NCBI RefSeq assembly: GCF_044324785.1
Contig: NZ_CP172127.1
DNA: 64,000 nt
DNA from: Escherichia coli
GTDB taxonomy: Bacteria; Pseudomonadota; Gammaproteobacteria; Enterobacterales; Enterobacteriaceae
Direction: 5' to 3' (one strand)
The notes below the pieces were generated by a model that was not told the DNA's origin, searched no databases, and saw only the letters and a list, made by a program, of their open reading frames with translations. Every line of letters begins with the position of its first letter. Within the stretch, counting starts at the first letter, position 1. Shown here piece after piece: positions 50,124-53,572 of this stretch. Position numbers and translations under genes: made by a program.

Positions 50124-50321
50124 ATGTCAGAAACTATTACGGTGAATTGCCCAACCTGCGGGAAAACGGTGGTGTGGGGTGAAATCAGCCCGTTTCGGCC
50201 ATTTTGCTCCAAACGTTGTCAGCTGATCGACCTCGGAGAATGGGCTGCTGAAGAAAAACGAATCCCCAGCAGTGGCGATCTTTCCGAAAGCGATGACTGG
50301 AGCGAAGAGCCAAAGCAGTGA
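50124..50321 (+). CDS. yacG: DNA gyrase inhibitor YacG (zinc finger)
   Basis: [40 protein letters not shown]... C4 zinc ribbon, 65 aa. Confidence 0.93.
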
Positions 50322-50327
50322 CATTTT

Positions 50328-50420
50328 GTCTGATGCGACGCTGGCCTGATAAGACGCGCCAGCGTCGCATCGGGCATCTTGTGCAAATGTTGGATGCGGC
50401 ATAAACGCCTATCCGACATA
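50328..50420. repeat. REP (repetitive extragenic palindrome) cluster between yacG and mutT
   Basis: tgatgcgacgctgg...ccagcgtcgcatc palindrome and a second degenerate unit ggatgcggcataaacgcctatccga matching the REP core GCCGGATGCGGCG family. Confidence 0.8.
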
Positions 50421-50807
50421 TACACGCTTAAGCTTCGCAAGTACCGGTTCATTGGCTGGCGGAAAATCATCGGCATTCAGACCGACCAGCGCCATCCACT
50501 CACCGGGTTGCCCTTCTTTACCCCACGGCTCCCCTTCCCAGCTTTCGACCAGCCAAAACCACAGTGTTATATGCCTGTCCGGGAATTCATATTCCAGTTT
50601 TTCAAATAGCGAAAAATGTTGTGGGGTAATCCCGACCTCTTCCTGAAGTTCACGCACCACCGCCTGTTCCGGCGTTTCGCCCATTTCAATTTTACCGCCG
50701 GGAAACTCCAGTTTATTCGCCATGTGCGCATCTGCTGCGCGACGCGTTATAAAGATTTCATTGTTCTCGTTGCGAATAATACCTACCGCAATTTGCAGCT
50801 TTTTCAT
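50409..50807 (-). CDS. mutT: 8-oxo-dGTP diphosphatase (Nudix)
   Basis: MKKLQIAVGIIRNENNEIFITRRAADAHMANKLEFPGGKIEMGETPEQAVVRELQEEVG Nudix box; last codons run into the REP element. Confidence 0.92.
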   Translation of the reverse strand: MKKLQIAVGIIRNENNEIFITRRAADAHMANKLEFPGGKIEMGETPEQAVVRELQEEVGITPQHFSLFEKLEYEFPDRHITLWFWLVESWEGEPWGKEGQPGEWMALVGLNADDFPPANEPVLAKLKRVYVG

Positions 50808-50821
50808 TGTCTTAAACCTAT

Positions 50822-50850
50822 AAAAAAGGCGCAGAATCCTGCGCCTTTTA
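50822..50850 (-). terminator. Rho-independent terminator after secA
   Basis: Minus strand: stem aaaggcgcag gatt ctgcgccttt followed by ttta. Confidence 0.7.
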
Positions 50851-50866
50851 CTTCAACTGTTAGCTT

Positions 50867-53572
50867 TTATTGCAGGCGACCATGGCACTGCTTGTATTTT
50901 TTACCAGAACCGCACGGGCAAGGATCGTTACGTCCTACTTTGCGCTCACCGGTTTGCGCCGCCAGTGCAGCTGCGGCTGCAGAGTCGTCATCCTGATGGC
51001 TAAGCTGCTGCATTTGCGCTAAACGCTCGGCTTCCATACGACGCTGTTGTTCCAGCTCCTCAACCTCTTCAGGCATACGTACCTGAACTTTGCTCAGCGT
51101 GCTGATAACTTCATATTTCAACGACTCCAGCATCGCTGCAAACATGGAGAACGATTCACGTTTGTATTCCTGCTTCGGATCTTTCTGTGCATAGCCACGC
51201 AGGTGGATACCCTGACGCAGATAGTCCATCGCTGCCAGGTGCTCTTTCCACAGGGAGTCAAGCGTTTGCAGCATGACGCCTTTCTCGAAGTGACGCATCA
51301 TCTCAGCACCAACCACTTCTTCTTTACGCTGATACACTTCGATGGACTGCGCCAGAATGCGCTCACGCAGCGTCTCTTCATGCAGTTCTGGTTCTTTATC
51401 CAGCCACTCGGCAATTGGCAAATCGAGGTCGAAATCGTTCTTCAGACGTTCCTGCAGCCCCGGAATATCCCACATTTCTTCCAGCGACTGTGGCGGAATG
51501 TAGGCATCAATGGTCGCTTTGAACACATCTTCACGAATGCTGTTGATGGTTTCGCTCACATCGCTGACATCCAACAGTTCGTTACGCTGGGAGTAAATGG
51601 CGCGACGCTGATCGTTAGCCACGTCATCATATTCCAGCAGTTGCTTACGAATGTCGAAGTTACGACTTTCAACTTTACGCTGGGCGTTGGCAATCGCTTT
51701 AGTCACCCACGGGTGTTCAATGGCTTCGCCTGGCTTCATACCCAGTTTACGCATCATGCCGGATACTCGGTCGGAAGCAAAAATACGCATCAGCGCATCT
51801 TCCATCGACAGGTAGAAACGGGAAGAACCAGCATCCCCCTGACGACCAGAACGACCGCGCAACTGGTTATCGATACGACGGGATTCGTGACGCTCGGTAC
51901 CGATGATATGCAGGCCACCTGCTGCCAGTACCGCATCGTGACGTACCTGCCAGTCGGCTTTAATTTTTTCAATTTGCTCTGCGGTCGGATTTTCCAGCGC
52001 GGCAACTTCTGCCTGCCAGCTACCACCGAGCACAATATCTGTACCACGACCCGCCATGTTGGTCGCGATAGTCACCGCAGCCGGATAACCTGCCTGAGCA
52101 ACAATCGCCGCTTCGTTGGCATGGAATTTGGCGTTCAGGACATTGTGCTTAATACCGGCTTTGGTCAGTTCGTTTGACACCAGCTCCGATTTTTCGATGG
52201 AGATAGTACCCACCAGCACCGGCTGGCCTTTCGCAGTACGCTCTTTGATATCTTCAATGATCGCCTGAATTTTTTCCGCTTCAGTCATGTAGACCAGGTC
52301 CGGCAGATCTTTACGAATCATTGGACGGTTGGTCGGAACAACGACGGTATCCAGCTTGTAGATGGAGCTGAATTCGAAAGCTTCGGTATCAGCAGTACCG
52401 GTCATCCCCGCCAGTTTTTCATACAGACGGAAGTAGTTCTGGAAAGTGATCGACGCCAGCGTCTGGTTTTCGTTCTGGATCTGTACACCTTCTTTCGCTT
52501 CCACAGCCTGGTGCAGGCCATCGGACCAACGACGTCCCTGCATGGTACGACCGGTGTGTTCGTCAACGATGATAACTTCACCATCTTTAACGATGTAGTC
52601 GACGTCTCGGGTAAACAGCGCATGAGCGCGCAGCGCCGCCGTTACGTGGTGCATCAGCATGATGTTGGCCGGAGAGTACAGAGACTCCCCTTCATCCATG
52701 ATGCCTTCTTTCACCAGCAGTTCTTCAATCAGCACCAGACCACGTTCGGTCAGGTTCACCTGGCGAGATTTTTCGTCCACCGAGAAGTGGCCTTCGCCCT
52801 GGAAGGTTTCGGAGTCTTCTTTTTCCTGACGGATCAGGTGCGGAATAATTTTATTCACGCGTTTATACATTTCCGAGCTGTCTTCTGCCGGGCCGGAAAT
52901 GATCAGCGGTGTACGCGCTTCATCGATCAGGATGGAGTCCACTTCGTCCACCAGCGCATAGTGCAGTTTACGCTGTACACGTTCTTCAGGGCTGAACGCC
53001 ATGTTATCGCGCAGGTAGTCAAAGCCGTATTCGTTGTTCGTACCGTAAGTGATGTCAGCTGCGTAAGCTTCACGCTTCGCCGGTGCTGGCATGCCCGGCA
53101 GGTTGATACCGACAGTCAGGCCAAGGAATTCAAACAGCGGACGGTTGTTTTCGGCGTCACGTTGCGCCAGGTAGTCGTTGACGGTAACAACGTGTACGCC
53201 CTTACCGGTTAATGCGTTCAGGTAAGCAGGCAGCGTTGCGGTCAGGGTTTTACCTTCACCGGTACGCATTTCGGCGATGCAGCGTTCGTTAAGAACCATA
53301 CCGCCGAGTAACTGAACGTCGAAGTGACGCATACCAAAGACGCGCTTACTTGCCTCACGCACCACGGCGAAAGCTTCCGGGATCAGATTTTCCAGCACTT
53401 CGCCTTTTTCCAGACGTGCACGAAACTCTGCGGTTTTCCCTTTCAGTTCTTCGTCGGAGAGTTTTTCCATCTCCGGTTCCATGGCATTGATGATGTTGAC
53501 CACTTTGCGCATCCGGCGCAGGGTGCGATCGTTACGACTACCGAAAACTTTAGTTAATAATTTGATTAGCAT
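50867..53572 (-). CDS. secA: preprotein translocase ATPase SecA
   Basis: [43 protein letters not shown]... 901 aa, C-terminal zinc-binding [14 protein letters not shown]. Confidence 0.97.

Follow-up and report, generated by a model that had tools for sequence, protein, structure and literature searches.

The stop codon of Escherichia coli mutT lies within a REP element, and its position in the repeat differs among strains

Introduction

What sets the end of mutT in an Escherichia coli strain whose MutT runs three residues beyond that of K-12? The question is raised by a window of 64,000 nucleotides from contig NZ_CP172127.1, the whole stretch of DNA analysed here, in which yacG and mutT converge on a short spacer. 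A sequence-only reading of the window had placed two REP-like palindromes in this spacer and proposed that the last residues of MutT are specified by the second of them, so that REP variation would remodel the end of a gene. The pair of a z2 and a y REP joined by a short linker, BIME-2, was reportedly defined by Bachellier and Gilson. Ton-Hoang et al. 2012 (PMC3333891) describe the y, z1 and z2 REPs, the BIME-2 architecture and the variation in its tandem copy number; according to the same paper, TnpA-REP needs the GTAG foot of the REP in order to bind and cleave in vitro. We therefore describe below the repeat, the reading frame that enters it, the alleles of the gene end across E. coli and its relatives, and the readings that these data allow.

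Layout of the locus

The gene yacG (DNA gyrase inhibitor YacG, 65 aa) occupies positions 50124–50321 on the plus strand, and mutT (8-oxo-dGTP diphosphatase, 132 aa, 399 nt) occupies 50409–50807 on the minus strand, leaving a convergent spacer of 87 nt (50322–50408) that contains one BIME. Both genes were assigned from the list of open reading frames and from the annotation of E. coli strain N3, to which an 801-nt neighbourhood of the locus is 100% identical by nucleotide search; in N3, PGAP gives the same 399-nt gene, whose product is named MutT (RefSeq WP_000736011.1). For mutT, alignment with the PDB sequence agrees: residues 1–129 match 1MUT with an E value of 3.5e-85 and four substitutions (R89S, S105A, I123L and L129V). 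The window protein has full-length homology to E. coli MutT with its NUDIX domain, and Pfam PF00293 (NUDIX) is found on close MutT homologues. No intrinsic terminator was predicted in the yacG/mutT spacer by a simple terminator scan.

A separate feature lies in the spacer between secA and mutT, where positions 50822–50891 (minus strand) match the Salmonella sRNA STnc40 in Rfam with 81.7 bits (gathering score 45). The match takes in the last part of secA together with a GC hairpin and the run of T that follows it (about 50826–50850), shortly before mutT begins; the terminator scan did not report this hairpin.

A BIME-2-like element between yacG and mutT

The yacG-proximal half of the BIME is a z2-type REP at 50344–50375 (plus strand), which was found by pattern, BLAST and alignment. 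It matches the REP pattern with 1 mismatch, a result obtained 0 times in 100 shuffles, and agrees with a z2 consensus at 29/29 positions by BLAST (E 6e-12) and at 33/36 by global alignment when the foot is included. The other half is a y-type REP at 50389–50421 whose REP orientation is on the minus, mutT-sense strand, as identified by global alignment, homology and Rfam. This copy is degenerate, matching 26/34 positions of the consensus quoted in PMC12306157 with a 1-nt deletion in the global alignment, against 29/34 for the K-12 y REP; it is the positional homologue of the y REP copies of K-12, E. albertii and E. fergusonii. A gapless y-REP consensus pattern allowing up to 3 mismatches gave no match in the window because the window copy carries this deletion. 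Between the two inverted REPs lies a short (S-type) linker of 13 nt, ATCTTGTGCAAAT, at 50376–50388, which is conserved across strains. The two palindromes of the sequence-only reading are thus where it had put them.

Next to the z2 REP we found a partial z2 half-REP in the opposite orientation (50327–50345, plus strand) by repeat search, BLAST and folding. Paired with 50358–50376 (89% complementary), it is the left arm of an inverted repeat of 19 nt; it matches positions 3–18 of the z2 consensus at 16/16 by BLAST, and makes a perfect 14-bp stem in both folds. The half-REP stands where the z2 REP would otherwise have its GTAG foot, and the window reads GCTG there (50340–50343). The foot of the y REP is likewise not GTAG but ATAT (50418–50421), so both feet are mutated in the window, whereas the homologous copies of K-12, E. 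albertii and E1V33 retain GTAG.

The element is also recognised at the level of RNA. The Rfam family naRNA4 (RF02564), which models the z2+y BIME unit, matches 50343–50418 on the minus strand over the full model with 63.6 bits (gathering score 59.5, E 9e-11), and the spacer folds into two strong hairpins in either sense, at −53.1 kcal/mol in the mutT sense (z −5.2 against shuffles) and −64.1 kcal/mol in the yacG sense (z −7.7). The same two-hairpin z2+y unit makes up REP325, to which the naRNA4 family refers (Qian et al. 2015, PMC4550694), but REP325 is the yjdM–yjdN locus with six tandem units and the window element is at mutT/yacG; the match tells of membership in the repeat family and does not point to a particular sRNA gene. 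The role in the nucleoid that has been proposed for naRNA4 is under dispute (bioRxiv 10.64898/2026.03.23.713779). Pattern search and BLAST found no second REP copy within the 64-kb window. Across complete genomes the 801-nt query hit a median of 4 places per genome and 19,330 places in all, which we attribute to the REP part of the query.

The window element resembles BIME-2 in its imperfect, inverted z2 and y palindromes of about 35 nt, its short linker of about 13 nt, its place between convergent genes and its strain-variable copy number. It differs in its feet, neither of which is GTAG, and in that the y REP shares 13 nt with a coding sequence, whereas BIME-2 is strictly extragenic. We read the window BIME as a decayed BIME-2-like member by descent rather than as a non-member. 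It is probably an immobile relic, because the GTAG required for binding and cleavage by TnpA-REP in vitro is mutated in both of its feet.

Two stop codons in one repeat

The minus-strand frame of the window ends AAG CTT AAG CGT GTA TAT GTC GGA TAG, giving ...KLKRVYVG, and the stop of this 132-aa frame is the TAG at 50409–50411 within the y REP, as had been noticed from the sequence. K-12 MutT is 129 aa long and ends in KLKRL, in agreement with the terminus given for it in the sequence-only reading. The corresponding K-12 DNA is CGT CTG TAG GTC AGA TAA GGC G, in which the GTAG foot of the homologous y REP supplies TAG as the mutT stop, and a TAA follows three codons further on in the 5′ arm of the REP. 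A canonical REP read in the frame of mutT, G TAG GTC GGA TAA GG, holds two in-frame stops three codons apart. In the window, the foot reads GTA TAT as compared to CTG TAG in K-12 (ATAT against GTAG). Because the first stop is TAT, translation would continue through three REP-encoded codons to the second stop, and because both stops lie in one REP, it is the sequence of the repeat that would fix the length of the extension (+3). The second stop reads TAG and not TAA because the 1-nt deletion has turned TAAGG into TAGG. No third in-frame stop follows it in the remaining 30 codons translated.

The overlap of coding sequence and REP is therefore 13 nt in the window (50409–50421, minus strand), comprising the third base of Val129, Tyr130-Val131-Gly132 and the TAG stop, and 4 nt in K-12, comprising the third base of codon 129 and the TAG. 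This agrees with the proposal that C-terminal residues are specified by the REP. When mutT 3′ ends were aligned across strains, the C-termini differed, and that of K-12 is not identical to that of the window; REP variation does remodel the gene end here, by substitution in the foot and not by gain, loss or movement of a REP. By this comparison, a stop inside a REP is not peculiar to the window strain, as the K-12 stop is also REP-borne and only its position within the REP differs.

The extra tripeptide, Tyr-Val-Gly, is probably functionally neutral, because all solved MutT structures end before it (each of the 23 E. coli MutT entries in the PDB is of the 129-aa form) and because the tail is variable across the Enterobacteriaceae: MutT proteins of Citrobacter, Salmonella, Klebsiella and others are 128–135 aa long and diverge after ...KL.

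Alleles in complete E. coli genomes

Exact 34-nt haplotype queries covering codons 125–133 were run against 5,426 complete E. coli genomes, and each query matched one place per genome, in mutT. Haplotypes with TAG at codon 130, encoding 129 aa, account for 3,233 genomes (1,370 + 1,786 + 77; 59.6%), and those with TAT or TAC, encoding 132 aa, for 1,833 (334 + 355 + 567 + 328 + 136 + 113; 33.8%), with 360 of the 5,426 (6.6%) left unclassified by these queries. The exact haplotype of the window is present in 136 genomes. The 132-aa form is thus no rarity of the window strain but is carried by at least 34% of the complete genomes of E. coli, including Nissle 1917, the type strain ATCC 11775, ATCC 25922 and O157:H7.

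Several alleles make up the longer class. O157:H7 EC4115 and NE1092-2 carry GTG TAT GTC GGA TAA (tail VYVG); ATCC 25922, SC455 and FDAARGOS_1300 carry GTG TAT GCC GGA TAA (VYAG); U15A and Ecol_743 carry GTG TAT GTC GAA TAA (VYVE); E22 has GTG TAC GTC GGA TAG, and the window GTA TAT GTC GGA TAG (VYVG). The CTG TAG class is represented by 14EC047, O111:H8 and 98203, with CGT CTG TAG GTC GGA TAA in 14EC047 and O111. As predicted from these sequences, the 129-aa form is that of K-12, most A/B1-like strains, E. albertii and two divergent Escherichia, and ends in KLKRL or KLKRM. The span of the BLAST match (801/915 versus 804/920 nt) was considered as a proxy for the allele and rejected, since O157:H7 EC4115 has an 804-nt span yet a 132-aa MutT.

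Outgroups and the polarity of the change

A degenerate DNA pattern scan of genome contigs gave three of the outgroup loci, and the comparison is to be read as one with a set of outgroups rather than as a survey of Escherichia. E. albertii has ATG TAG and a 129-aa protein ending in KLKRM, and Escherichia sp. E1V33 and the divergent GTDB species-representative SCPM-O-B-8794 both have CTG TAG. E. fergusonii has a REP at the same place, and its frame, CGT TTA CAG GTT GGA TAA, gives LQVG and 132 aa. The REP was at mutT before the Escherichia species split, because positional homologues are found in five Escherichia species or clades, and its overlap with mutT predates the radiation of the genus. 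Outside the genus, no E. coli-type REP was found after mutT in Salmonella, where the 320-nt spacer opens with an unrelated GC hairpin, and a Citrobacter freundii-type contig has a different REP-like palindrome (TGCCGGATGAGGCGACGCTGCCATCCGGCA) 8 nt past the mutT stop without overlap. The convergent spacer thus draws palindromic elements in several genera, with overlap of the coding sequence only in Escherichia.

From these outgroups, TAG is probably ancestral, as the more parsimonious reading, and the stop would have been lost independently in E. fergusonii (to CAG) and within E. coli (to TAT). The strongest alternative reverses this order: the 132-aa form would be ancestral and the K-12-type 129-aa protein a truncation, in which a nonsense mutation (CAG or TAT to TAG) restored GTAG in A/B1-type lineages. 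This was the view reached early on from E. fergusonii alone, whose 132-aa protein has at codon 130 a CAG, one transition from TAG. Phylogroup B2 is early-branching within E. coli, and the 132-aa form is carried by the B2 strains Nissle 1917, ATCC 11775 and ATCC 25922. The view was reversed by E. albertii and the two divergent Escherichia, which carry xTG TAG as K-12 does; a 132-aa ancestor would need nonsense mutations in several lineages, which is possible, but for a shared CTG TAG, retention is a simpler account than a pair of convergent substitutions. In addition, it is GTAG that is conserved in this family of repeats (PMC3333891). We regard a 132-aa ancestor as doubtful, if still worth weighing, and favour an ancestral TAG. 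A neighbour-joining tree of 363 nt of mutT did not separate TAG and TAT alleles, and this unsorted gene tree points to recombination or recurrent change that may have blurred the history of the alleles.

A proposed explanation and the hairpins at the gene ends

The data can be brought together as follows. A single BIME-2-like element, made of a z2 REP and an inverted y REP with a short linker between them, would sit between convergent yacG and mutT such that the y REP abuts mutT and its foot overlaps the gene end, supplying the stop. In the lineage of the window, mutation of the foot from CTG TAG to GTA TAT would remove the first stop, and ribosomes would read Tyr-Val-Gly and end at the second REP-borne stop. 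By analogy with other REPs between convergent genes, which have been proposed to be bidirectional terminators or decay blocks (bioRxiv 10.64898/2026.03.23.713779), the BIME may also serve as a 3′-end hairpin block or attenuator for both transcripts. Taken as a whole, from the BIME overlap and the stop loss to the derived 132-aa form, the neutral tail and the 3′-end role, we consider this explanation likely to be right.

According to Liang, Rudd and Deutscher 2015 (Mol Cell 58:431), as reported in PMC12306157, a REP that begins no more than 15 nt past a stop causes ribosomes to stall, and this class of REP is marked by mRNA cleavage, tmRNA tagging and a lower protein output. Both yacG and mutT would belong to this class because each stop lies within 15 nt of a REP stem: the distance is 0 nt or less for mutT, whose stop is inside the y REP, and 5–6 nt for yacG, whose TGA (50319–50321) precedes the first REP-derived stem, starting at 50327 in the fold. 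The two convergent genes are in this respect like the stop-proximal REPs reported there, with the difference, as far as that account goes, that the mutT stop is inside the stem and not upstream of it. In the predicted fold of the mutT mRNA, the overlap of coding sequence and REP lies wholly in the 5′ arm of the y-REP hairpin, which takes up the last four sense codons and the stop.

Is the allele then functional and selected? A stronger hairpin and a deeper stop could alter stalling, tmRNA tagging or decay, and so lead to a different MutT level and mutation spectrum. EC4115 (TAT) and 14EC047 (TAG) differ at only two linked positions in the 62 nt folded, and the predicted hairpin is stronger in EC4115 (−27.2 versus −22.0 kcal/mol), since each of the linked substitutions (CTGTAG to GTGTAT) creates a pair with the BIME linker in the mutT-sense RNA. 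Two of the pairs so formed are G-U wobbles that exist on the mutT-sense strand only, and the further change of GTG to GTA in the window turns a G-U into an A-U pair. With the stop in the 5′ arm of the stem and the reported cut in expression by REPs within 15 nt of a stop (PMC12306157, in so far as it relays that work), such a reading can be built. However, the other TAT alleles do not follow this trend, as the hairpins of U15A (−18.5 kcal/mol) and the window (−19.9 kcal/mol) are weaker than that of the TAG allele of 14EC047; both classes already have their stop at or inside the REP and fall into the same reported class; and two or three pair-forming substitutions are statistically not compelling. 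A functional, selected allele is thus improbable. For the linked change CTGTAG to GTGTAT, a quasipalindrome template switch was also considered and rejected, as a copy of the opposite arm would give GTGCAAAT and the positions in between are unconverted.

More far-reaching, and in our judgement very improbable, is the idea that the TAT alleles of B2, O157:H7 and the window strain are a lineage-specific MutT setting, in which a stop 9 nt deeper in a longer mRNA hairpin would act through stalling, tmRNA tagging or decay to alter MutT abundance and thereby the rate and spectrum of A:T to C:G changes among E. coli phylogroups, with the lost GTAG feet freezing the BIME against RAYT-mediated rearrangement. 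A sequencing or assembly error at the stop, or a chance REP-like palindrome, might be suspected from the degenerate y REP that the gapless pattern misses, but has practically no probability given the same 34-nt haplotype in 136 independent complete genomes, related TAT or TAC alleles in about 1,700 more, the Rfam score above the gathering threshold, the homologous position in five Escherichia species or clades and the z-scores of the folds.

Relation to known systems

In that a change of TAG to TAT lengthens the protein to the next in-frame stop, the 132-aa allele is like other bacterial stop-loss extensions; unlike an ordinary stop loss, both the lost and the back-up stop come from one copy of a dispersed repeat. 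In the literature searched, no paper mentions mutT, REP and yacG together. The kind is already known, both as stop-proximal or overlapping REPs and as stop-loss extensions, and the 132-aa protein is already MutT in RefSeq. The allele is genuine but unremarkable as natural variation, being a frequent polymorphism in an element of known type, and what is known of MutT and REPs is unchanged by it. Its value is as a well-sampled example of a dispersed 'extragenic' repeat that provides coding sequence, in which the GTAG foot of a REP is, in K-12, the stop codon of a well-studied antimutator gene and the second REP stop is its back-up. The TAG/TAT pair of 14EC047 and O157:H7 EC4115, in near-identical contexts, is a natural one and suits testing of the stop-proximal REP effect.

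Copy number and insertions at the locus

One BIME lies between yacG and mutT in the window and two lie there in tandem in K-12 and APEC E12049, and at least three tandem copies are present within 330 nt after mutT in E. albertii and in both divergent Escherichia genomes. In an evenly spaced sample with 56 full-length matches, one BIME was present in 34 and two in 22. The 132-aa alleles of this sample were single-BIME in 14/15 cases as judged by span length, an association confounded by phylogeny. The array of 14EC047 resembles a K-12-type array collapsed to one unit through recombination between copies. The K-12 record (NC_000913.3, 110900–112000) has no repeat_region feature for its two mutT/yacG BIMEs, although the REPs are plainly in the sequence.

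Insertions are found at the same BIME. In E. coli 7_26_9A (NZ_CP074826.1; positions 400–640 of the extracted locus), IS621, a REP-targeting element of the IS110 family, is at the foot of the mutT/yacG z2 REP, with a junction that reads ...ataatacaAGGCCTGATAAG; hits H87 and H88 are listed with the same observation. In ATCC 25922 (NZ_CP009072.1; positions 1060–1080 and 2490–2510 of the extracted locus), the loop of the z2 REP contains IS1397, a BIME-specific element of the IS3 family, whose transposase is frameshifted and which is flanked by a repeated GCCA, one at each junction. The same BIME has thus been the target of two distinct REP-specific IS elements in different strains. Of the 5,425 genomes matched by the 801-nt query, 324 (6%) cover less than 80% of it, which suggests recurrent interruptions of the yacG/mutT spacer.

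Finally, a 168-aa protein (P0005) from a 158-kb ENA metagenome contig is a singleton MutT variant that departs from MutT after ...ANEPVI and continues for about 45 further residues. A portion of this tail, AAASDIR, resembles a translated y REP, and the protein looks like the product of a 3′-end deletion that fused mutT into the repeat array.
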